From a virus (lineage: Duplodnaviria; Caudoviricetes): a stretch of DNA of 53,718 nucleotides. The DNA lies in the IMG/VR virus record IMGVR_UViG_3300030380_002559, positions 1 through 53,718 of that record, one strand, 5' to 3'. A program made the position numbers and the translations under genes. How positions within the stretch are numbered: the stretch's first letter is position 1; every line of letters starts with the position of its first letter. Shown one piece after another: positions 2,728 to 33,234 of this stretch. The notes under the pieces were generated by a model. That model did not search any database. It was not told where the DNA came from and saw only the letters and a list, made by a program, of their open reading frames with translations.

Positions 2728-3381
2728 CTACACTATCGTGATGTTTCCAACCATCGAAGAATGGTTGGTGCATTGATACACAAGCGACGTGTCGCTTGGT
2801 TCGTGCGGAACGATGAACTGCGTCAGGCCAGTGGTAGAGTTGTAATTTTCTGTAACACCAGTTGTGAAAGCAGAGCCACCATTGGATGTTCTGATTTGCA
2901 GCGGGTGGCTACTCACGTTGGCAGTGTTGTCAATCAGGTAAGTATGACCCTTATAGAAAGTGAAGTTTGGATTGTCGCCTGAAGTAGCACCCGGACCAGT
3001 GAAAGTGTATGCCGAGCTTCCGTTAGTGCCAGCAGTGTACTTTGTTACCGGACCTGTGGTTTCATCATTCAACCTTATCCAAGCGCCGCCATGAGCGAAA
3101 TAGAGACCACCTGTAGCGTGAACGTGAGCCACAGCCCCATGATAAGTTGATGCACTAGGCAAATCACTTAGGTTGGCATAGTAAAATACGATCTTGTTAG
3201 CACCAGAGCTAACATCGAGAAGTCCGTTGGCGTCTATGATATCAGTCAATACGCTGGAACTGTTTCCTAGCGCAGCGTAAATCTCGTTAAAATTATCGTT
3301 TATCTTGTCAGCGCCAGCACGAAGAGTGTCTCCGGTGCCGTCATTAGCGCTCGACCCTATTCCTACTGCCTGCTTTGCCAT
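2728..3381 (-). CDS. Virion protein: T4 gp9/gp10-like N-terminal anchor plus C-terminal cupredoxin-like domain
   Basis: N-term ANDGTGDTLRAGADKINDNFNEIY; C-term SHPL...YQCTNHSSMVGNI. Confidence 0.6.
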   Translation of the reverse strand: MAKQAVGIGSSANDGTGDTLRAGADKINDNFNEIYAALGNSSSVLTDIIDANGLLDVSSGANKIVFYYANLSDLPSASTYHGAVAHVHATGGLYFAHGGAWIRLNDETTGPVTKYTAGTNGSSAYTFTGPGATSGDNPNFTFYKGHTYLIDNTANVSSHPLQIRTSNGGSAFTTGVTENYNSTTGLTQFIVPHEPSDTSLVYQCTNHSSMVGNITIV

Positions 3382-19516: not shown

Positions 19517-19753
19517 TTAGTTAGTTTCGTGAATCATGCGGCCACAATGTTCCCACTCGTTAAAGTCAATAAAGAACGCATAGGTGTTCATGTCATCTTT
19601 TAGATCGACGGCAACAGGGATAGAATTATCAGGCCAAACATAAAGGTCAACGAGCTGTTTGATATACCGTCCAGCTTCGTCAAGCGAGAGCCAAATACCA
19701 CCCATGAACTTACGCTCATGGGTGTTAGTATTTTCAGCAAAGAGCGCGTACAT
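19517..19753 (-). CDS. Hypothetical protein
   Basis: 78 aa; TAATG-coupled to the DUF932 gene. Confidence 0.6.
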   Translation of the reverse strand: MYALFAENTNTHERKFMGGIWLSLDEAGRYIKQLVDLYVWPDNSIPVAVDLKDDMNTYAFFIDFNEWEHCGRMIHETN

Positions 19754-20751
19754 TATACGGCCTCTGCATACTCGATAGCTTTCTCGAGAGCTTTGCCCTT
19801 ACGGGCGGCACCGGCACCAAACCAAGCTGAATGCATGGCGTTACCTGTCTCTTGACCACGACGCTGGTGGTCCTCGACAAAGGTCACACCATTTAGTGCG
19901 CCCCACCAAGTACCCTTGGCTGCTTTGAGTGTGGCACCGGGCGACTGGTCGATCGCTGTCATGACCATATCGGCTGTACGCGTAAACTTCTCACGCATGA
20001 TCAGCTCGGGGTCTTTGGCCTTTTCGACGAACAGATCTTTCTGGTACAACTCGGCAACGAAGTTAGCGACCGACTCACCAGTGAACTGCTTCGAAGCAAG
20101 GAACTCTGCCTGCTCCTTGAACTCCTCGCGCCGCGCCTTAGAAAGACCAAGAGCCTCTTCTGCAGCTTGACGGACATCATCATCGAAAGCGCGGATATGC
20201 GGCATACGAAACGCTGCACCGCCATCGCGTAGGGCGACGGTCAATGTATTGTTACACACAACACGGATCGGTGTGAACTTGATCGTCATCGCCTTACCAC
20301 AAAGATGCGGCTGGTTAATCAAGAGGTAACCCTTGACCTCGTCACCACCCGGCAACTGGAAATCGGAAGAAATCTTAGCAAGACCCCAAATCTCAGAACC
20401 GCTTTTCAACGAACCAGCGGTCTCCATAGTCATGTGACCGGCTTCCGTGAACTTCTTAAAGAAGTCGAAGATCTCTTCGTTTTGGATAGGGACGTAATCA
20501 TCGCCACAATGCGAAAGGATACTGCTATCGTTATCGCGCGTAATAAAGTGGTGTCCATCGACAGGCATAACGCCAACACCCTCATGCCACTCGCTCTCGG
20601 TGAGCGTATAAGCAGGACGCTTAGATACGGTCCAATCGAGATCAGCGGCTTGCATCATCTCTTTAGGTGTCAGGTCAGCTTCAACCGGAACACCGAGACC
20701 ATGCCAAGGAACTGCCCCTGCATACGCCATTGTTTCAACTAAATGTGCCAT
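19753..20751 (-). CDS. DUF932 (phage/plasmid TIGR03299-like) protein
   Basis: MAHLVETMAY...PWHGLG...YVPIQNEEIFDF...ETAGSL...FTPIRVVCNNTL...GTWWGALNGVT. Confidence 0.85.
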   Translation of the reverse strand: MAHLVETMAYAGAVPWHGLGVPVEADLTPKEMMQAADLDWTVSKRPAYTLTESEWHEGVGVMPVDGHHFITRDNDSSILSHCGDDYVPIQNEEIFDFFKKFTEAGHMTMETAGSLKSGSEIWGLAKISSDFQLPGGDEVKGYLLINQPHLCGKAMTIKFTPIRVVCNNTLTVALRDGGAAFRMPHIRAFDDDVRQAAEEALGLSKARREEFKEQAEFLASKQFTGESVANFVAELYQKDLFVEKAKDPELIMREKFTRTADMVMTAIDQSPGATLKAAKGTWWGALNGVTFVEDHQRRGQETGNAMHSAWFGAGAARKGKALEKAIEYAEAV

Positions 20752-20752
20752 G

Positions 20753-21004
20753 TCACTTTCTCCTTTGATTGCATAGCTTACTTCTTACTTTATTACTATA
20801 GTATGCAATACGCGGGAATAAAACGTCAAAGCGTTGCCTTTTACGCGCAAAATTATCAGTGATTGTCAAGTTACAAGCGAGACAGTGAACCACACCATTT
20901 TTCTTTGGCTCACGGAATGCAACCAAACAACGGGGGCATTGGTCAGCATCCAATGCCCCCTGAATAGTTCCGGGTTCACCAAAAGTAGGGAGCTTAGAAG
21001 CCAT
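20753..21004 (-). CDS. Small Zn-ribbon-like protein
   Basis: CPRC...CLAC; the C-terminal tail runs across the promoter. Confidence 0.5.
   Translation of the reverse strand: MASKLPTFGEPGTIQGALDADQCPRCLVAFREPKKNGVVHCLACNLTITDNFARKRQRFDVLFPRIAYYSNKVRSKLCNQRRK
20794..20829 (-). promoter_or_regulatory. Sigma70-type early promoter
   Basis: TTGACG-18 nt-CATACT followed by ATAGTAA. Confidence 0.65.
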
Positions 21005-21179
21005 TGGTGATGATGAGGGCTACTAATAGATAGACAACAACTAGCACCAAAAGAACAATGAGCCAAGAACTGTGACGCGTGGCTTTTTCAGGAACGAAAG
21101 GTGCGCGACTACCATTCGTCGTATGGTTCATATGAAGATACATTAACGATCGCATCAACGGCTTACTTTGCTGTTCCAT
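20994..21179 (-). CDS. Small single-TM membrane protein
   Basis: ATG at 21179 after CAGGAG; WLIVLLVLVVVYLLVALII. Confidence 0.55.
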   Translation of the reverse strand: MEQQSKPLMRSLMYLHMNHTTNGSRAPFVPEKATRHSSWLIVLLVLVVVYLLVALIITNGF

Positions 21180-21363
21180 TTTCGATCTCCTGAACTTGTT
21201 TACCCATTTCGACGATCCGTGCACGCAGGACACGAGTTTGGTTACAGTCCGTACAACAGCGGCCATCGTTGATCGGCCACGCATTATGACCTTGTGTCCA
21301 ATAGACCTCACCGTTAGGAAGTTTGTGTTCATCAATTTCACCGTGACATATTGAGCATTTCAT
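21163..21363 (-). CDS. Small Cys-rich (Zn-binding) phage protein
   Basis: CSIC...GHNAWPINDGRCCTDCN. Confidence 0.7.
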   Translation of the reverse strand: MKCSICHGEIDEHKLPNGEVYWTQGHNAWPINDGRCCTDCNQTRVLRARIVEMGKQVQEIENGTAK

Positions 21364-21535
21364 CTTTCAAGGACTCCTCTCGTTTTTTCAAGTTACAATG
21401 GACCGCCCTGTTGAAAGTGTAGGGCAAGGTTTCGCTTCTCGCAAACATCGCATCGACGAACTGGTCAATCTCGATATAAGTCAAGCGACTGACGACCTCG
21501 GCGAGATCGTCCATGAATGGGTCTTTATCAGTCAT
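21338..21535 (-). CDS. Hypothetical protein
   Basis: Start MTDKDP after GGAGAGG; coupled to neighbours. Confidence 0.5.
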   Translation of the reverse strand: MTDKDPFMDDLAEVVSRLTYIEIDQFVDAMFARSETLPYTFNRAVHCNLKKREESLKDEMLNMSR

Positions 21536-21818
21536 CCGCCTCTCCAAAGAAGATCGCGTTATGAACACCGACCGGTTTATTACGATCGAGCTTCAACTTA
21601 CCGTCGACCCAATCATAAAAGCCATGGATCTGTGGCATTTTGTATTTACGCCCTTTTAAGACAACGACTTGATCAATAACTTTTGGATCGCAGATAAAAC
21701 CATCGTTAAATGATTTTACGAGGTATGCTTCAAGAGCCTTGATCGAAGGACATATCGGTGTTAGCCAATGACCATTAGTACCGTTAAAACCAGTCGAATG
21801 AATCTGAGCTGAATACAT
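21528..21818 (-). CDS. Hypothetical protein
   Basis: RBS AAAGGAG with a promoter directly upstream. Confidence 0.65.
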   Translation of the reverse strand: MYSAQIHSTGFNGTNGHWLTPICPSIKALEAYLVKSFNDGFICDPKVIDQVVVLKGRKYKMPQIHGFYDWVDGKLKLDRNKPVGVHNAIFFGEADD

Positions 21819-21837
21819 TTTTTTCTCCTTTACAGTC

Positions 21838-21885
21838 TTACTATATTAGTATGCTGGAGAACAAAGGCGAATAATATCTCAAAAT
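21838..21885 (-). promoter_or_regulatory. Early promoter
   Basis: TATTTTGAG-ATATTATTCGCC...CATACTAATATAGTAA resembles the other early promoters. Confidence 0.55.
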
Positions 21886-21890
21886 AATGG

Positions 21891-22250
21891 AAGGTGTTCC
21901 GTGGCTTTGGTGGAGCATGTATTAAGGCAGACCCACCTTTGCTTAGTTCTATCCTCCTCTCAAGCAAGCCCGATGGGGGTAAGGATAGGCCAAGAGCCAC
22001 GGCCTTGTATTTCACTTTGTCTTAACCGGATGACGTTGGTGTTCCACACGGCTCTTACGAGTACCGTCTACCTCGCTCTTTTTACGAAGGATCGCTTTCG
22101 CGATTTCGCCGTGGTTGTTCGAGGTAGTCACAAGCTCCACCATTACCATCTTTTACTAACACCCCAACGCGTCAGTGGTCTTAACTCAGCTGGGACGAGG
22201 TCGAACCTTTGGCACCCCGCCCACGGAAAGGAATTTTGTCTGCCCCCCCT
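21891..22250 (-). ncRNA. Candidate large structured non-coding RNA (unknown class)
   Basis: Gene-free ~360 nt with about 9 complementary segment pairs, two GNRA tetraloops on the minus strand and several crossing long-range pairings (see findings). Confidence 0.6.
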
Positions 22251-22258
22251 AACCTGAA

Positions 22259-22486
22259 TTAAACATCTTGTTGTTCCAGAACAACTGAACCATCGCCATA
22301 GTCTTTGCGACCTAATTCAAGGTTCCAGCCAACATTATATTCAGAAATCTCCTGCGGAGACAAATCTTCTGATTTGATCGTGTACCCCCGCCCATCGATA
22401 TAGTCGACACGATGGGGGTTATAGGGCCGACCGCGATAACGGTCAGCCCCTCCACGGTCATATGGTGAACCGTGGGCTTTATTCAT
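22259..22486 (-). CDS. Conserved small phage protein
   Basis: HGSPYDRGGADRYRGR...EYNVGW...KDYG. Confidence 0.7.
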   Translation of the reverse strand: MNKAHGSPYDRGGADRYRGRPYNPHRVDYIDGRGYTIKSEDLSPQEISEYNVGWNLELGRKDYGDGSVVLEQQDV

Positions 22487-23034
22487 GACGCGGCCCTCAT
22501 AAAGTCGCGCTGGTACTGATCAAGGATTACCTGAGTAAGCCTAACCGGAATCGTATCATCGAGATCTTTCGAAACGTACCTACCGAAATCAGTAAGGGAC
22601 CACTCAAGATCGCGAGACCCGGCAGAGATCGGACGCGAATTAATCAGTCCGATATCACGGGGACGACTAAGCACCGACGATAACGAATTATCGTGCATAT
22701 ACCCAATGGCCGAAGCCAGCTGAGAAGTCCGCAAGAACCCAAGCGACCGATTACGGTACAGACAAATCAAGACCTGCCAAGTACGATACATCGAACGCTG
22801 ATCATTAGAAACCCGATCATGAAGAAACGGAACTACCGTACCATCCTGATGAGCAACCGGAACAGGAAGCGTCTCCAGCTCAGCGAATTCTTCCCAAACG
22901 TCGGGATAATTCTGAGCAAGAAGAAAAGCAATCTGCTTCGAAGGGGTACGAAACTCTTTCTCTGCGATCGCCTTTAAGACGCGGTAAGTCGGAATTTCGA
23001 CAGCCACCGACTTATGGCTTTCAATGTTTGTCAT
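22483..23034 (-). CDS. Putative regulator (N-term ribbon-helix-helix-like, C-term winged HTH-like)
   Basis: KSVAVEIPTYRVLKAIAEKEFRTPSKQIAFLL; TSQLASAIG...SSVLSRPRDIGLI...WSLTDFG. Confidence 0.6.
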   Translation of the reverse strand: MTNIESHKSVAVEIPTYRVLKAIAEKEFRTPSKQIAFLLAQNYPDVWEEFAELETLPVPVAHQDGTVVPFLHDRVSNDQRSMYRTWQVLICLYRNRSLGFLRTSQLASAIGYMHDNSLSSVLSRPRDIGLINSRPISAGSRDLEWSLTDFGRYVSKDLDDTIPVRLTQVILDQYQRDFMRAAS

Positions 23035-24461: not shown

Positions 24462-24734
24462 TTATGAGTCGCGCTCTATTTGATTAGCACTGATAACGTG
24501 GATATCGCCTAACGAATACCCAATAGCGCTTCCTCGCCGACGCTCTCGTTCTATAGCAAAACCTATAGCTTGATCTTCAGTCGTAGCGTTGATTTTACGG
24601 ACACGTGTATACTCAGTGATAAGGATAACTTCATACAAAGCAGAGTTATATTTTTCGTGGTCCTTTAACTTATGTTTTTTGGAACGTGTAGTTTGATTCT
24701 GCGCCCCTCGTCCACCCCCTTGTACTTTCGGCAT
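24462..24734 (-). CDS. Hypothetical protein
   Basis: 90-aa ORF overlapping the 3' end of polA. Confidence 0.5.
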   Translation of the reverse strand: MPKVQGGGRGAQNQTTRSKKHKLKDHEKYNSALYEVILITEYTRVRKINATTEDQAIGFAIERERRRGSAIGYSLGDIHVISANQIERDS

Positions 24735-26676
24735 GGCTGATCACTTTCTCCATTTCTTTTGCGTCGCCCCAATTAGGTCCAAGGTCAACGTCTACTTTGA
24801 TTGGAACTGCTAACTCGACGCAGCTTTCCATAATCTCTTTGATCTTTTCAATCTGCTCTGGCGACTCAATCGAAAAATCTAATTCGTCGTGAACTTGGAT
24901 ATGCGGGACGATACCTTCATTGTAGAGTATCTGCATGGCCTTCTTCGTCATATCAGCCGCGCTTCCCTGAATGAGTCTATTCATTGCTTTATGGGTAAAT
25001 GCTCTCTTGATTGCGTTACCGTGTTCGGCATACGCTGTCTTGTGGTCCATAATTTTTCGTGTGCCAAATTGAGCTGGCTCCCACTTATCGAACCGGCACC
25101 GCCGCCCTAACAACGTGCGGATGCTTCCTTGTTTTGAAGCCCTCTGGACTGCTCGCTCCGATAACGCTTTTACAAACGGTACGCGGTCATGGTATTGCGC
25201 GAACAATTCTTTGCCTTCTTCTAATGTAAGTCCCAGACTATCGGAGAGCTTAGTAACACCCATTGAATAGAACAAACCAAGGTTGATGTTCTTAGCTTGT
25301 TTACGCGGTATCCCCGCCATATCGGCCACGATCTGGTGGAAGTCGGCATCGTCCTGTTGAAAGGCGTCTACGGCGTCTTGAGCGCCGCGTAGCTCCATCA
25401 AATGGGCGTAGTGTACCACGATCCGTGGCTCTTGTTGCGAATAGTCGAACGCGCCCCACTGACACCCTTCTTCTGGGATGAAGAGCGATCGAATCTTCGT
25501 ACCAATCTCAGGGTCACGTGCAGGTACTTGTTGTAAGTTCGGGTTTGAATAACTGAACCGACCTGTTACGGTACCGCCGTCGTCTGAGCGCAAGGGATGA
25601 AGTTCAGCATGAATACGACCATTAACTTGGTTTGACATTATCATCCCATCGATGAATGTCGTCCTAGCTTTATTCATCTTTCGCGCTTCAACAATTAGCT
25701 TGGGCATCTCGTGTTGATGGCCTTCTAACCAGCCTTGTTGAAATGATGGTGCGCCAAGTTCTGTACGCGGATAGTCTAAACTCAAGCCATCAAAGGCTTC
25801 CTGAATAGACTTATTTGCCCAAACCTCGATGTTCTTACCGCAAAGTTTCTTGATCTTTTGGAGAGCTGCCTCTTCTCTCGCACGAAACCATTTAGAAAGT
25901 TCATCTGCTTTATCTAAATCTACCCGTACACCACGCCACCGCATCTCGATAAGCAAGGGTGTTATCGAAGATTCAAGGTCGAAGATCGACCATAAATCTT
26001 GTCGGGTCATCTCACCCTTTTGCCATTCCCAAAGTTTAAGAGTTAATGCTGCGTCTTGCTCGGCGTATGGTCCTACATACATGGGAGGTAATTGATGTAA
26101 CCCCCCTTTAGCATCAACATTCCATGCTTCGGCGGCGTCACGTAAAAGGCTTTCGTCTTTCTTTTCTTGAAGATAGCTTTTACCAAGCGCGTTAAGAGCA
26201 TAGCTAAACCTATTTTCATCTATTAAAGGGGCAGACACCATTGTGTCAATGAGCCGGTTTTCTCGCAGAGTGATACCCTCCCTGCGCATCCACCCAATAT
26301 CGTAAGAAGCGTTGTGGCAAATAATATCTGCGCCACCGTCGATTTGAGCCTGTAACCAATTTTTGACGAGCTTCTCATTTAAGTTACCTCCTGCTTCATG
26401 CTTAACGGGTAGATAACCTGACCAAGATTCAGTAGCTACGGCGTAACCTACAACATGACCTTCGCCCCTTGCCCAACCCGCACCCTTCTCTTTAAGAGAA
26501 GGATCTCGCGTTTCAAGGTCGATACATATCTCCTTCGCTGCGGTTAGGTCAGGAAGATGTTCAGGTGGGGTCCAATCGCTATCAGGAGAGAACAAAGGCT
26601 GTTGAAGCGGGTTCTTTGGCATAGCTGGCTTCTTATCAGGTAGTGTCTGATAAGAGCTTACTATGTTATTAGTCAC
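24670..26676 (-). CDS. polA: DNA polymerase family A with 3'-5' exonuclease
   Basis: Exo motifs DLET, HNASYD, YAEQD; TGRFSYSNPNLQQVP; motif A DYSQQEPR; motif B KNINLGLFY; motif C VHDEL. Confidence 0.95.
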   Translation of the reverse strand: MTNNIVSSYQTLPDKKPAMPKNPLQQPLFSPDSDWTPPEHLPDLTAAKEICIDLETRDPSLKEKGAGWARGEGHVVGYAVATESWSGYLPVKHEAGGNLNEKLVKNWLQAQIDGGADIICHNASYDIGWMRREGITLRENRLIDTMVSAPLIDENRFSYALNALGKSYLQEKKDESLLRDAAEAWNVDAKGGLHQLPPMYVGPYAEQDAALTLKLWEWQKGEMTRQDLWSIFDLESSITPLLIEMRWRGVRVDLDKADELSKWFRAREEAALQKIKKLCGKNIEVWANKSIQEAFDGLSLDYPRTELGAPSFQQGWLEGHQHEMPKLIVEARKMNKARTTFIDGMIMSNQVNGRIHAELHPLRSDDGGTVTGRFSYSNPNLQQVPARDPEIGTKIRSLFIPEEGCQWGAFDYSQQEPRIVVHYAHLMELRGAQDAVDAFQQDDADFHQIVADMAGIPRKQAKNINLGLFYSMGVTKLSDSLGLTLEEGKELFAQYHDRVPFVKALSERAVQRASKQGSIRTLLGRRCRFDKWEPAQFGTRKIMDHKTAYAEHGNAIKRAFTHKAMNRLIQGSAADMTKKAMQILYNEGIVPHIQVHDELDFSIESPEQIEKIKEIMESCVELAVPIKVDVDLGPNWGDAKEMEKVISHAESTRGWTRGAESNYTFQKT

Positions 26677-26989
26677 CTTGACTAGTCCTGTTCCGCATCT
26701 CGGCCTCTACAAGAAAGAGATACCGACGTAAGTCACTGATATCGTCGACAAGACCCTCGGGCCGACGATCCTCATCCATAGCAGAAAAAATATCGTAATG
26801 ATGACCTAATACCTGTTTTTCAATACGATCCCATTTACGCGCCAACATCATGAAGGCACCTACACCGCCGCGCTGTTTCCAACTATCTCCGTACGACTCT
26901 TCTGCGCGTGTAAGCCCCGCGCAATCTTCATCAGCGATATTTTCTACGGTCTGTAGAATTTTACTTTTTTCTTTCGAGCCACTCGACAC
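26669..26989 (-). CDS. Nucleotide-modification-associated domain 1 (DUF1599/MazG-like dNTP pyrophosphatase fold)
   Basis: SYGDSW...RKWDRI...EGLVDDISDLRRY; context between the TS-like gene and polA. Confidence 0.6.
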   Translation of the reverse strand: MSSGSKEKSKILQTVENIADEDCAGLTRAEESYGDSWKQRGGVGAFMMLARKWDRIEKQVLGHHYDIFSAMDEDRRPEGLVDDISDLRRYLFLVEAEMRNRTSQGD

Positions 26990-27953
26990 AGGCTTTCCTC
27001 CAATCCGGTGATTCTATTTCACGGGCCTTATCTACAGCCTCGTTAATCATTTTTTCTTTCCAGAGCCACCAAGCCTCGACCATAGGTATTGCAGTCTTCG
27101 GAAAGATTTGGTTTTGGTATCCCACATGGGATTCTCCGTTGTGGAGCCAGTCGAAGAAGAGACAGACCTCGAGATCGAACTCTTCCCATTTATCGACGAG
27201 CGGGACCGGATAGATTTCATACGCTTCATAAGGGTCTGGATGAATCCCTTGAGGAAGTTTTTCATCGAGCGGCCTCCATACGTCTAAATATACATGCGGA
27301 TTACTACTGACTTGATAATAACGCCCAAGACCCATCCCCATGCAACTAGCTAAATATTCATGAACCATACTGAAGTGAACAGCATTCGCACCGTACATAC
27401 CCCAGATCAAATCATTCGATCTGTTCGTTACGGTCATATCTAAATAATAACCAAGGCTGGCTGGTCGACCGCGTAAGAAAACTTGCGTATTACAAGGAAC
27501 GTCCTTGGATGGAGAACCAAGGTCTTGAGTACAGTCCCACATCTGAAGTACAGCACGGCGGTCTAATGGGTTCTTGCGAAGTAAATCAATAACGGTAGAT
27601 AGCTGGTCACGTCCAAACCATTCAGTCCAGCGGTAACCGTAAGCACCATTTACTAGAACACCGTCATCCGAAAAGTCAGCCATCTTCTTAGCAAACATTG
27701 TCAGAGTCTTTAGATCTTGCCGACCAGCGATCATCCACAGCCCTTCAATAAAATGAAAGAAAGGGTTACAATTACGTTCTGCACTAAATAGAACACGCTC
27801 ATCCGGTCGCTCATAAACAGTCGTGAGTGGTGTCGGGAACGACAACACCGGACCATTGCGCGAGTCCGTTTCTAACAACTGACTACTCTCCCGCAAGTTC
27901 ATAACTGCGATCTGGAAAACCTCATTGACGTTTACGCCTTGTATAACTTTCAT
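26961..27953 (-). CDS. Thymidylate synthase-family enzyme, probably dUMP hydroxymethylase
   Basis: SRNG, EGLW, GAYGYRW, RRAVLQMWD, catalytic PC, RSND..WG...N (Asn indicates dUMP specificity), HVY. Confidence 0.8.
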   Translation of the reverse strand: MKVIQGVNVNEVFQIAVMNLRESSQLLETDSRNGPVLSFPTPLTTVYERPDERVLFSAERNCNPFFHFIEGLWMIAGRQDLKTLTMFAKKMADFSDDGVLVNGAYGYRWTEWFGRDQLSTVIDLLRKNPLDRRAVLQMWDCTQDLGSPSKDVPCNTQVFLRGRPASLGYYLDMTVTNRSNDLIWGMYGANAVHFSMVHEYLASCMGMGLGRYYQVSSNPHVYLDVWRPLDEKLPQGIHPDPYEAYEIYPVPLVDKWEEFDLEVCLFFDWLHNGESHVGYQNQIFPKTAIPMVEAWWLWKEKMINEAVDKAREIESPDWRKACVEWLERKK

Positions 27954-30196: not shown

Positions 30197-31702
30197 CTAC
30201 ATAGAAAAATATTTATTGCTCATCGGTTGTACGATGTGAAGATTCTGTTTTGCTCGGGTAAGCCCCACATAAAAGACGCGAGTGTCGTCGTCTGGGTTCT
30301 TTTCAAAGCTTTTCCAAGTGCGGTGCGGAATATCTGTAAGCAGCAAAACATTATCTGCTTCGCCACCTTTTGCAGAATGTATGGTAGATAATTTTATTCG
30401 AGGTTTACTTGTGATCTTTTCGCCTCGGCGTAGTATTGAAAGCATATAACTACGTTCAGCGACAGAGAGCGCATCGAACATATCGTGCCAAATTAATGGT
30501 TCCGAAAGACCTGCCTTTTCCACGACCTCCGCGAGGGTGAAAGTTTCCGTTGGTGCGCAAGTATCAAAGACCTTCTTTTTCGAGCTCTTGATATACGCGA
30601 TCGCTGACGTTGCGTCCTCTGAATACGCAGAATGTCCACGGCGTAAACGCTCCCAAGCCTTGACTGAAGCAATCTTCTTTTCAGAAACAGAAGGATTGCC
30701 CTTCCTTTCAAAGTATACACCAAGGTTACGGCAGTGCGCGTCAAGTTCATTTAACAAATAATTAGACCGAGATAAGATTAACCACTCACCTGATGTAAGG
30801 TCCACATGCTCGAAACTTGCTTCGCTGACAACTTGTCCTTCCTCCTCCCGAGGATTCCAAGTTTTATTTGTTCGTGTCTTAACACGGCGTATCACTTTGT
30901 CGGCGATCCGGTGAACACTACGCGGGATGCGATAACTTTGATCCAACACTCGAGCGTTCCCCTCGCTCAAAGCAACAAGATGATCCACGTCTGCCCCTGC
31001 CCATCTAAAAATGGCTTGATCGTCGTCTCCGGCAATATAGACACGCTCCGAATTATTTGCCAAAAGCTCTACTAACCGCCACTGTAAAGGACTAAGGTCT
31101 TGCGCCTCGTCCACAAACATAACGTCTAGTTTAGGGGCCAACTGTTTTTGAACACAAAGATCAAGCATATCAGTAAAATCGTGTAAGCCTCTTGCTTGTT
31201 TAAATTGATACAGCCCTTTTTGGAACCGCTCTAACGCGAACCAGTCAATATCTTCGTCATAATGCTGGTGCCATTGCTCCCGTAACGGTACGCACCGGAG
31301 CCGCGACAAACCCTCGATAAAACTGAGCCGGTCGTCCTTCGATAGCATGGAAATCGAACCTTCTTCCATGTCCGAGCGACCAGATAATCGCAACCCCATA
31401 ATGTCGTTAAACTCGCGTAAGGAGTTACCGTTCAAAACAGAACTACGCGATAGACCTAACATTCGATGACAAAGGGAGTGTAACGTACGAAAATTCGGTA
31501 ACTCTTTCGAGCTTAACCCGAAGCGCTCCATCGTTCGGTCGCGCCCTTCCTCTGAAGCCTTCTTAGTAAAAGCAAAATACCCAATACGATCAGGCGGTGT
31601 GCCGTTTTGCATTTCTAATTCGATGAGGTTCAAGATCGTGGTAGTTTTGCCTGTACCGGGGGGACCAAGGATAATCGACCATGTGCTTGAGTCGCTGGCC
31701 AT
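30197..31702 (-). CDS. Superfamily 1 (UvrD/Rep-like) helicase
   Basis: GPPGTGKTT, AFT, TLHS, VDEAQD, GDDDQAIF, QSYR, STIHSAKGGE, YVGLTRA. Confidence 0.92.
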   Translation of the reverse strand: MASDSSTWSIILGPPGTGKTTTILNLIELEMQNGTPPDRIGYFAFTKKASEEGRDRTMERFGLSSKELPNFRTLHSLCHRMLGLSRSSVLNGNSLREFNDIMGLRLSGRSDMEEGSISMLSKDDRLSFIEGLSRLRCVPLREQWHQHYDEDIDWFALERFQKGLYQFKQARGLHDFTDMLDLCVQKQLAPKLDVMFVDEAQDLSPLQWRLVELLANNSERVYIAGDDDQAIFRWAGADVDHLVALSEGNARVLDQSYRIPRSVHRIADKVIRRVKTRTNKTWNPREEEGQVVSEASFEHVDLTSGEWLILSRSNYLLNELDAHCRNLGVYFERKGNPSVSEKKIASVKAWERLRRGHSAYSEDATSAIAYIKSSKKKVFDTCAPTETFTLAEVVEKAGLSEPLIWHDMFDALSVAERSYMLSILRRGEKITSKPRIKLSTIHSAKGGEADNVLLLTDIPHRTWKSFEKNPDDDTRVFYVGLTRAKQNLHIVQPMSNKYFSM

Positions 31703-33234
31703 TAGAACGGTTCTTCCTTCATTTCAGGCGTATCGAACGAACTATCCTGACCGGTATATTCTGGTATAAACCAGACGGTAATTCCTTTGCCTTTTACATG
31801 GAAGAAGTGATGACCTCCGCCAAGCTCACGAATACGCGCCGCTATATTATTACGGCCATAGTCCCGGAACTGTTGTCGACTGAAGTAATCAAGAAGGTCT
31901 TTTAGCCTGAAGTATGTTTTGCCCTCTTCTGTCCAAGGCTTACCTAAAAGCAGTTCGTCACGGCTTTGAGCTTGCGCTCGTTCGGTACAAAACGACTCCA
32001 GTAGCTCCATAAACTGACCTTCAACGGATACGTCTTTTGGCACTTCAATAATCGAAACAGCGTCGAGTAGCGACTGCATCGTATTACGCCAAGTATTTTG
32101 CCGTTGGGTCGGCGGCATAAAATTAAGAGCGTCCATACACCGACGTTGAAACTTGGTTTGATTTTGAAGCTCTTCTGTTGTTAATTCTAGCCGGTGGCCT
32201 TCTACGTCAAGAAACCAGATCGGAGGTTGAGAGTCCTGCTTTTGTAGATTACCAAACTGCGGTAAGCCGCCTGACGACCCTACACCGTAGTCACAAGTTC
32301 GACAAATCGCCGCGTTACAATATGCTGCGATGGGCTGATCATTACACTTATAGAGGTAGTCTTTATTATTCAAAGCACGAATAACAGTCAGCACTTCTTG
32401 AGCGCCTAATGGCGGCTTCATAAACTTAAAGTTAAATTCTTCGACTTTGCGTTCCCAAGTATCTTGAAACTTCTTACGAGCGAACACCCCAAGATCGAAT
32501 AAACCGTTGTTGCGCGTACCTTCAGGGAACCCCATTGTGCAAAGTGACCGTAAGCACGGCGGCGCGCCTTGTAAATCAGGGTCATCGTCGGCGTTATGGA
32601 TAGCTTGAGGTGATAAGTTTTCAAGTTCCCGGCGTGTGACACGCTTCGACTTAGCGTGCTCAATAAACTCTTCTAAATCGAGGATACCTTCGCCATCGTC
32701 ATTATGGCAGTAACGTGTTGAGGACGTACCGCCAAAATAGGGCATATTTAAAATATTGCCTCTATCGCCCTTTTCTAAAAGTAACTTTATTTGTTTTGGA
32801 AAAATCTCAGCGGTGCCGTAACCAAGAGCAGACGCGATTTCTTTTAATTTACCCTGCATTATCGACGCGGGTACAGACTCCGATACAAAACAATAAACAT
32901 GTGCGCCGCCCGATTTAGAACGCGCAACAACAAATGGAAGTTCGTTTCTTTTAACCAACCGCTCAACTAAATCGTCGTGTTTAAGAGGGTAGGTATCAAT
33001 GTCGATAGCCCCCCAAACACAACTGTTATCTTCCCTAATAGGTACGATCCCAAGGGACTCTTGACCGGTTAAATGATTTTCCCATAATTCAAGTAAACGA
33101 TCGTCATCTAAATCTTCTGAAACGACACGATATTGACCTTTCTGTTTACCGGGACCGTTATCCTCATTAGGACGATAAGAGCCATACGCCAATCGTAAGC
33201 CCGAAAATAATTCTGCAAAATCTTTTGCCGCCAT
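31702..33234 (-). CDS. DNA primase (archaeo-eukaryotic primase superfamily-like)
   Basis: WGAIDID, RSKSGGAH, EIFPKQ, GNILNMPY; PPC...EGTRNN PriCT-like region. Confidence 0.8.
   Translation of the reverse strand: MAAKDFAELFSGLRLAYGSYRPNEDNGPGKQKGQYRVVSEDLDDDRLLELWENHLTGQESLGIVPIREDNSCVWGAIDIDTYPLKHDDLVERLVKRNELPFVVARSKSGGAHVYCFVSESVPASIMQGKLKEIASALGYGTAEIFPKQIKLLLEKGDRGNILNMPYFGGTSSTRYCHNDDGEGILDLEEFIEHAKSKRVTRRELENLSPQAIHNADDDPDLQGAPPCLRSLCTMGFPEGTRNNGLFDLGVFARKKFQDTWERKVEEFNFKFMKPPLGAQEVLTVIRALNNKDYLYKCNDQPIAAYCNAAICRTCDYGVGSSGGLPQFGNLQKQDSQPPIWFLDVEGHRLELTTEELQNQTKFQRRCMDALNFMPPTQRQNTWRNTMQSLLDAVSIIEVPKDVSVEGQFMELLESFCTERAQAQSRDELLLGKPWTEEGKTYFRLKDLLDYFSRQQFRDYGRNNIAARIRELGGGHHFFHVKGKGITVWFIPEYTGQDSSFDTPEMKEEPF

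Follow-up and report, generated by a model that had tools for sequence, protein, structure and literature searches.

A stretch of about 362 nucleotides (nt) on the minus strand of an uncultured virus record, IMGVR_UViG_3300030380_002559, very probably encodes a real and new structured RNA in which nested helices are combined with two long-range pseudoknots. The whole 53.7-kilobase (kb) record (53,718 nt) is referred to here as the window; coordinates follow its plus-strand numbering, and the RNA is read on the minus strand. The overall reading that we favour, at a probability of roughly 0.6, is that this is a new structured RNA family, released from the 3' end of a transcript and acting in trans as a particle. 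An initial annotation, made from the letters of the sequence alone, had proposed a structured non-coding RNA of ~360 nt on the minus strand, and this proposal is borne out by covariation, by an excess of G.U over A.C combinations and by the lack of a coding signal. The comparison of homologues that it recommended was carried out with 13 homologues, in which the structure is kept by compensating changes.

Homologues were collected by searches with neighbouring proteins, by exact-pattern scans of viral, metagenome and genome contigs, and with two covariance models, R1 (built from alignment A5 and matching 22152-22251 of the window) and R2 (built from alignment A6 and matching 21888-22025). As a result, a total of 13 further distinct sequences from uncultured viral and metagenome contigs was obtained, giving 14 with the window. 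Eight are long forms of ~340-405 nt (the window, L008, L019, L021, L002, L003, L018 and L020), the seven others being 68-77% identical to the window, and six are short forms of ~190-230 nt (L113, which is one contig with L034, L116, L110, L112, L111 and L114). With hairpin 1 and pseudoknot 2 as the outer limits, the length extends from ~190 nt (L116) up to ~405 nt (L008). All 14 share a core in which hairpins 1 and 2 are followed by a connector that varies and by a conserved joiner whose last bases are A-A-Y-A-C-A-A-G-G (in L110, ACAAAG). Next comes a three-way junction that is closed by helix 12, includes arm 13 and hairpin 14 and has A-rich strands, and last a tail with GAACACC, 13 of the sequences having GGAACACC. 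Hairpin 2 has a constant stem in the long forms and an altered one in L110 and L113, with the loop motif GGUUYG retained. In the short forms, as read from their sequences, one or two small hairpins stand in place of helices 3-10 (22180-22024, ~155 nt), and the matches of R1 and R2 abut or overlap one another in five of six, lying 20 nt apart in L110. The central ~155-nt domain (helices 3-10, with GNRA-capped arms) is optional: the window has it and the short forms are without it. Pattern matches in L014, L022-L026 and L029, situated in G+C-rich coding DNA, were rejected as chance.

The nested structure was derived from the eight long forms, for which RNAalifold predicted 96 pairs, 29 of them with both sides changed. 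Pruning of this prediction left 14 helices with 79 pairs, which were counted on that same MAFFT alignment with two kinds of control, namely 3' partners slid by 1-3 columns and 500 column shuffles. Among the 630 cells of these pairs, 97.9% were paired, compared with 37.8-48.4% after sliding, and both sides had changed in 28 pairs, compared with 2-7. On four of five measures (percentage paired, double-change counts and covariation score), not one of the 500 shuffles reached the value of the real alignment. The same picture was obtained with all 14 sequences: in the 3' domain 95.9% of cells were paired vs 34.0-44.8% slid, with double changes in 20 of 32 pairs vs 4-6, and in the 5' part 95.6% were paired vs 48.1-60.2% slid, with double changes in 7 of 23 pairs vs 0-4. 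For hairpin 2, one of eight pairs shows a both-side change over the 14 sequences (G-C to C-G in L110 and L113). In register-corrected tables, compensatory positions number 3/4 in helix 3, 4/7 in helix 4, 2/4 in helix 5, 3/4 in helix 6, 3/8 in helix 7, 1/4 in helix 8, 3/4 in helix 9, 3/3 in apical helix 10, 1/8 in helix 12, 2/3 and 4/8 in helix 13, and 4/5 in helix 14. Since helices 4, 6, 9, 13 and 14 occur in four to six sequence versions, the support does not come from a single split into two clades. In the consensus structure the window RNA forms 80 nested and 12 pseudoknot pairs, all standard, and the best fold that keeps the consensus pairs is at most 2.6 kcal/mol above the unconstrained minimum free energy; the minimum-energy fold of the single sequence includes one pairing later rejected by comparison. 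Two RNAalifold elements were also rejected, a lengthening of helix 12 by AAGG/CCUU (87.5% paired, without covariation, five A.C cells, its CCUU being used by pseudoknot 2) and a small GCC/GGU stem in the hairpin-2 loop (84.6% paired, displaced by pseudoknot 2).

Both pseudoknots were counted over the 14 sequences. Pseudoknot 1 joins the hairpin-1 loop GGCAGAC (22244-22238) to the hairpin-14 loop GUCUGCC (21932-21926); 93 of 98 cells are paired, compared with 25-44 of 98 after sliding, two of seven positions are compensatory, and the variants are GGCAGAC/GUCUGCC, GGCAAAC/GUUUGCC, GGCAAC/GUUGCC and the wobble-compatible GGUAGAC/GUCUGCC. Pseudoknot 2, which the initial annotation had missed, joins the hairpin-2 loop AAGGU (22209-22205) to the 3' tail ACCUU (21895-21891); all 70 cells are Watson-Crick, compared with 28-48 of 70 after sliding, with two of five positions compensatory and the variants AAGGU/ACCUU, AGGGU/ACCCU and UGGGU/ACCCA. 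These comparisons leave both pseudoknots well supported, not proven, because each has few independent changes, and together they are predicted to clamp the 5' hairpins onto the 3' junction. Another candidate partner of GUCUGCC, the GGUAGAC of helices 7 and 10 (complementary in the eight long forms), was rejected, as the short forms are without that segment, and it is therefore the hairpin-1 loop that is the conserved partner. The elements of the RNA and its immediate flanks in the window are as follows.

21888-22249, minus strand: whole RNA, ~362 nt, bounded by the first G of hairpin 1 and the CCA that follows pseudoknot 2 (consensus structure, R1/R2)
22225-22249, minus strand: hairpin 1, GGGGG (22249-22245)/UUUCC (22229-22225), 98.5% paired in the 14-sequence alignment A8, both-side change in one of five pairs
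22238-22244, minus strand: 5' strand of pseudoknot 1, GGCAGAC, within the hairpin-1 loop
22193-22222, minus strand: hairpin 2, GGGCGGGG/CCUCGUCC, with a 14-nt loop, invariant in the eight long forms
22205-22209, minus strand: 5' strand of pseudoknot 2, AAGGU, within the hairpin-2 loop
22024-22180, minus strand: accessory domain, helices 3-10, with compensatory changes in its helices, missing from the short forms
22180-22177/22027-22024, minus strand: closing helix of the accessory domain
22176-22155, minus strand: hairpin 4, then helices 5 and 6
22127-22068, minus strand: arm 7-8-9 with a GAAA cap
22067-22048, minus strand: hairpin 10 with a GUAA cap
22003-22023, minus strand: conserved single-stranded joiner, ending in AAUACAAGG (alignments A2 and A7)
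21899-22002, minus strand: 3' three-way-junction domain (14-sequence covariation)
22002-21995/21906-21899, minus strand: helix 12, CCGUGGCU/AGCCACGG
21994-21942, minus strand: arm 13
21937-21909, minus strand: hairpin 14
21926-21932, minus strand: 3' strand of pseudoknot 1, GUCUGCC, within the hairpin-14 loop
21891-21895, minus strand: 3' strand of pseudoknot 2, ACCUU, within the 3' tail
21836-21887, minus strand: U-rich tract and conserved TAATAT block, downstream of the RNA and kept after all 14, probably not part of the RNA
22259-22486, minus strand: upstream open reading frame (ORF) of 75 amino acids (aa), its stop codon 9 nt ahead of the RNA

The sequence strings quoted in the initial annotation are present on the minus strand where it had placed them, and seven of the eleven pairings that it listed are supported by the homologue comparison, namely GGGCGGGG/CCUCGUCC (hairpin 2), CUACCUCG/CGAGGUAG, AUCGC-GAAA-GCGAU, ACGG-CUC-GUAA-GAG-CCGU, CUAUCCU/AGGAUAG, CCGUGGCU/AGCCACGG (helix 12) and the crossing pair GGCAGAC/GUCUGCC, which is pseudoknot 1. 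Its view that the RNA contains pseudoknots holds, but three of the four crossing pairs it gave as examples fail: UGGUGGAGC/GCUCCACCA forms 9/9 pairs in the window and 5-7/9 elsewhere, both strands belonging to other covarying helices; UUCCGUGG/CCACGGAA forms 6-8/8 without a double change and clashes with the supported helices 1 and 12; and CCACGGC/GCCGUGG forms 0-4/7 outside the window. No covariation supports the mutually exclusive CCGUGG/CCACGG folds that had been suggested. The last of the four pairings that fell away is UGACG-GUUGG-GUGUU/AACACCAACGUCA (22174-22158 with 22043-22031); of its 13 pairs, the members of the window's own subgroup keep 13, 13, 12 and 11, and the remaining four long forms only 5-7. 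The segment forms the covarying hairpin 4 and helices 5 and 6 instead. Two compensating changes in this pairing are seen between the window and L008, and it may represent another fold of the accessory domain, confined to one subgroup, or a coincidence.

Across the helices, 78 G.U cells and 5 A.C cells were counted in the long-form tables, four of the five A.C cells being misregister artefacts of helix 1, and this excess indicates that the RNA is the minus strand and not its complement. The features expected of a protein-coding stretch (a conserved frame, indels in multiples of three, a third-position bias) were not found: each sense frame has at least two stops in all eight long forms and no frame is open in all eight; the indel runs are not multiples of three in 7 of 7 cases between the window and L008 and in 14 of 17 between the window and L002; and substitutions are flat over the three codon positions (e.g. 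23, 26 and 25). An antisense frame of 118 codons (21901-22257, plus strand) covers the RNA almost exactly; it is open in the window only, none of the seven other long forms keeps it intact, and it matches no family. Automatic annotation could mistake this frame for a gene.

As far as sequence and covariance-model comparison can tell, the RNA constitutes a new family and fold, without detectable relation to described RNA families, in line with the earlier statement that it matched no known family. At the gathering score, the 4227 models of Rfam 15 gave no match in the whole window, and in eight homologue loci the only match was the tRNA of L002. When relaxed filters and E values up to 10 were used, two chance-level matches only were found in 21700-22400, to preQ1-II (22 bits against a gathering score of 47, on the promoter/ribosome-binding-site block) and to snoZ188 (15 bits against 50), and none in the 291 nt of the short form L112. 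ARAGORN reported no tRNA or tmRNA in the window and no tmRNA in 16 homologue or relative loci. The arrangement is not that of a tmRNA, in that the 5' G run has a local partner and the partner of the 3' tail is the hairpin-2 loop; the two ends of the RNA are not paired with one another, whereas those of tmRNA or RNase P RNA are. Neither the GOLLD nor the ROOL model matches; phage origin is shared with both, one of the 14 loci has a neighbouring tRNA, and the length of ~190-405 nt is not that of GOLLD RNA. Pseudoknot 2 is followed by the bases CCA in 4, ACA in 4, UCA in 1, UUA in 1 and UUU in 4 of the 14 sequences, so that the conserved 3'-CCA of a tRNA-like structure is not present. No description of the RNA was found in a literature search that included the HTVC023P papers, ROOL/GOLLD and marine phage structured RNA; the available portion of PMC9599517 makes no mention of tRNA, noncoding or intergenic, and that of PMC12753301 none of ncRNA or intergenic. 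According to the available portion of PMC10690425, 8,495 candidate structured viral RNAs of 29-151 nt were derived from the same viral collection, and pieces of the RNA may be listed among them.

Nearly all genes of the record are carried on the minus strand. Along the direction of transcription the order is primase (31702-33234), helicase (30197-31702), thymidylate synthase (26961-27953) and family-A DNA polymerase (24670-26676), followed by small ORFs, the RNA region, more small ORFs and a DUF932 protein (19753-20751), beyond which the small and large terminase subunits and the portal protein are encoded, so that the RNA region lies between the replication and packaging modules. The gene-free stretch noticed in the initial annotation corresponds to a 440-nt gap with the 75-aa ORF (22259-22486, minus strand) on one side and a 96-aa ORF (21528-21818, minus strand) on the other. 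By DNA polymerase identity, the closest cultured phages are 023Pt_psg01 (54.8%) and Pelagibacter phage HTVC023P (51.0%), followed by phage DSL-LC04 (49.5%) and Pelagibacter phage HTVC027P (48.7%). Model R2 matched none of the four whole genomes of 023Pt_psg01, HTVC023P, HTVC027P and DSL-LC04, with the window's record as positive control, and blastn of the window RNA and three short forms gave no match among the GenBank phages (INPHARED). The carriers of the RNA are a small group of uncultured marine tailed phages, akin to HTVC023P-type pelagiphages by their DNA polymerase. In phage 023Pt_psg01 (L027, 10194-10601), an unannotated gap of 408 nt, its sequence unrelated to the RNA, is found downstream of the DNA polymerase module; it comes after a 78-aa ORF without relation to the 75-aa protein.

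The order of a 183-aa HxlR-like protein, the 75-aa protein, the RNA, the conserved block and a small ORF is kept in both long-form subgroups. The 183-aa protein, encoded two genes upstream (22483-23034, minus strand), has a weak match to the HxlR-type winged helix (E 1.7e-4, 21.8 bits against a cut-off of 20.8). The 75-aa protein has no Pfam or PHROG match; its family is widespread, being found in at least 549 viral stretches, and has the N-terminal motif MNKxHGSPYDRGxAD. A homologue is encoded upstream of the RNA in two long forms (L008 and L002) and two short forms (L034 and L114), with one extra ORF between in L114. In a scan with R1 and R2, the RNA was absent within 2.5 kb in 75 of 76 further loci encoding relatives of the 75-aa ORF, the exception being L034. 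In the window, 9 nt separate the RNA from the stop codon of the 75-aa ORF; in L003, L018 and L020 the RNA follows the upstream stop immediately, while in L008, L114, L111 and L112 the upstream frame stops inside the hairpin-1 loop (L008 2042-2311; L114 6272-6523, minus strand). Where the upstream ORF passes through the 5' strand of hairpin 1 in this way, translation would compete with the folding of hairpin 1 and pseudoknot 1 on one transcript.

In L002 a tRNA-Leu(UAA) gene (3233-3321, plus strand) lies between the 75-aa ORF and the RNA, on the same strand as the RNA; it ends at the RNA start, with its 3' CCA 9 nt before hairpin 1, and its orientation adds to the evidence for the minus-strand assignment. 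A tRNA stands beside the RNA in only 1 of the 14 RNA loci. Same-strand tRNA genes were found within 2.5 kb of the 75-aa homologue in 12 of 60 related loci without the RNA, some of them directly after the gene, and were also seen at the relatives L004 and L005. The RNA occupies the place where related phages keep tRNA genes, which recalls the tRNA-island context of GOLLD and ROOL.

Downstream, all 14 RNAs are followed by a U-rich tract and then by a conserved block, the sequence of which differs in the short forms. The next ORF starts 70-85 nt downstream of the RNA, and TAATAT (21848-21843 in the window) lies ~25 nt before the ribosome-binding site of this ORF in the window and ~25-35 nt before it across the 14 sequences. 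A 17-nt motif, ATACTAATATAGTAAGA, occupies 21836-21852 (minus strand), and a second copy with two mismatches occurs at 20783-20799, before the DUF932 gene; the motif is also found at 3996-4012 of L008 and 4738-4754 of L002, is preceded by an A+T-rich block, and is located ~20-30 nt upstream of ribosome-binding sites (96-aa ORF and DUF932 gene). A simple sigma-70 scan does not call the TAATAT block. The block is probably the promoter of the next gene set, a phage middle promoter, and probably lies outside the RNA.

In the reading that we favour, the RNA would be made as the 3' end of the preceding early or middle operon transcript; the initial annotation had likewise placed it at the 3' end of an early operon, and it does lie where a co-directional gene run ends. 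That it is made with the upstream genes is suggested because there is no room for a promoter of its own and because the upstream stop codon lies inside hairpin 1 in some relatives; a sigma-70-like site inside the 75-aa ORF (22363-22334) is not conserved beyond the codon requirement, which points in the same direction. The RNA would then be cut free by processing and persist as a stable, compact folded particle, acting in trans by the binding of a protein or other partner to its invariant loops and junction nucleotides, and it may assemble with copies of itself. The trans-acting stable particle is itself put forward tentatively, at somewhat short of an even chance.

Several observations weigh against this reading. 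The folding-energy z-score of the minus strand is only -1.62 (6 of 100 shuffles fold equally well; +0.06 for the plus strand), and the case therefore rests on covariation and not on the density of complementarity. With respect to further pair types, 469 of the 500 shuffles attain the observed count, which is not above chance. The 14-sequence alignments A7 and A8 favour the model structure, to which they had been fitted, a bias that the slid controls share in part, and the marine viral contigs from which the 14 sequences derive are all related, so that many double changes trace to few evolutionary events; under each pseudoknot there are only two covarying positions. No conserved promoter was found upstream of the RNA, and a simple scan called no terminator at its 3' end. 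In favour of the reading, two marine metatranscriptome libraries of one study each contain one contig identical to the window (21000-23000 compared), spanning 22023-22249 (227 nt, depth 15.6) and 22074-22231 (158 nt, depth 2.5), the former ending one base past the accessory closing helix; as assembled contigs these attest presence in RNA libraries and are not proof of transcription, strand or ends. Two further runs, X3 and X4, gave nothing. The flanking genes are uncovered by these library contigs, and this was not used as evidence of abundance or processing.

An alternative of low probability is a cis-acting element at the operon boundary, either a conditional terminator or a riboswitch-like switch in which the formation of pseudoknot 2 before the U-rich tract would decide, perhaps by a ligand or protein, between polymerase stop and read-through. 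Consistent with this, a U-rich tract follows the 3' strand of pseudoknot 2 in all 14 sequences, the helix in L111, L112, L114 and L116 can be extended to AAAGGGU/ACCCUUU, running into UUUAUCUUU, the invariant unpaired junction nucleotides resemble a binding pocket, and the next ORF begins a short distance downstream. However, the promoter-like TAATAT block intervenes, so that the downstream genes need not depend on read-through; the neighbouring ORFs are without recognisable metabolic function, no Rfam riboswitch model matches, and the terminator scan was negative. A ribozyme, for example one that cuts itself from the polycistronic transcript at the base of hairpin 1, is quite unlikely. A core of this kind, with two pseudoknots and junction nucleotides that do not vary, is typical of catalytic RNAs, the RNA overlaps the upstream stop codon or follows it immediately (in L002 it immediately follows the tRNA), and the first G of hairpin 1 is exactly where the 227-nt contig starts; but a contig end is not a mapped RNA end, host RNases could make the cut, no known ribozyme model matches, and no conserved cleavage-site motif was found beyond UAR just before the G run. 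Equally improbable as the boundary element is the more far-reaching proposal of a new functional class in abundant ocean podoviruses, which would be either a new ribozyme or an RNA-only assembly with an intermolecular hairpin-1/hairpin-14 pair, as in the ROOL/GOLLD cages.

Covariance models can miss distant or rearranged members, and parts of the RNA might be among the 8,495 candidates described in the available portion of PMC10690425; that the RNA belongs to a known family but has diverged too far for the Rfam models to detect it is nevertheless very unlikely, given the two chance-level matches as the only result of the relaxed search of 700 nt plus 291 nt, the negative gathering-score and ARAGORN results, and ends that are not paired with each other. 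That there is no RNA gene at all, and that the stretch is protein-coding, a DNA site (origin or packaging) or chance complementarity, is extremely improbable and largely refuted. The 118-codon frame open in the window and the location between the replication and packaging modules would speak for it, but the frame is broken in the homologues and has no family match, the G.U excess, the GNRA loops and the two covarying pseudoknots fit a single RNA strand and not duplex DNA, and the slid and shuffled controls exclude chance.

Turning to known systems, ROOL RNAs are ~580 nt long. GOLLD and ROOL, according to the available portion of a preprint (bioRxiv 10.1101/2024.12.08.627333), have pseudoknots and kissing loops, no known function or protein partner, and often a position near tRNA genes; many GOLLD members exceed 800 nt, and the kissing loops turned out to be intermolecular. 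The present RNA resembles them in being phage-encoded, heavily structured and pseudoknotted, and in context (a tRNA directly upstream at one of the RNA loci, tRNAs at a fifth of the related RNA-less loci), but differs in matching neither Rfam model, in its much smaller size and in its helix layout. The pRNA of phage phi29, of ~120-174 nt, forms intermolecular loop-loop pairs and sits on the portal. It is likewise a phage-encoded structured RNA with loop-loop pairing that works as a particle, whereas no sequence or model match links it to the present RNA, in which pairing of pseudoknot 1 within one molecule and between molecules is indistinguishable from the sequences. Bacterial small RNAs derived from 3' untranslated regions are usually <150 nt and simple in structure, and act by base-pairing with the help of Hfq. 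If the favoured reading holds, the origin from an mRNA 3' end, the lack of an own promoter and release by processing would be shared with them, whereas the RNA is far larger and built around tertiary pairings. The tRNA-like structures of plant viruses have a pseudoknotted acceptor arm. Here too a 3'-terminal strand pairs with a hairpin loop, extending a G+C-rich helix (8 + 5 pairs), and CCA follows in the window; unlike in those structures, CCA is present in only 4 of 14 sequences, no anticodon-like arm is seen, and neither ARAGORN nor the Rfam tRNA model matches on the RNA.

An ornate phage-encoded RNA with an unexplained role has its precedents in GOLLD and ROOL. Large RNAs with many compensating changes and two long-range pseudoknots are rare, and to our knowledge the known classes of this kind are almost always ribozymes, riboswitches or the cores of RNA-protein machines. 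The existence of a minimal ~190-nt and an expanded ~400-nt form naturally defines the core for probing, structural studies and searches for partners.

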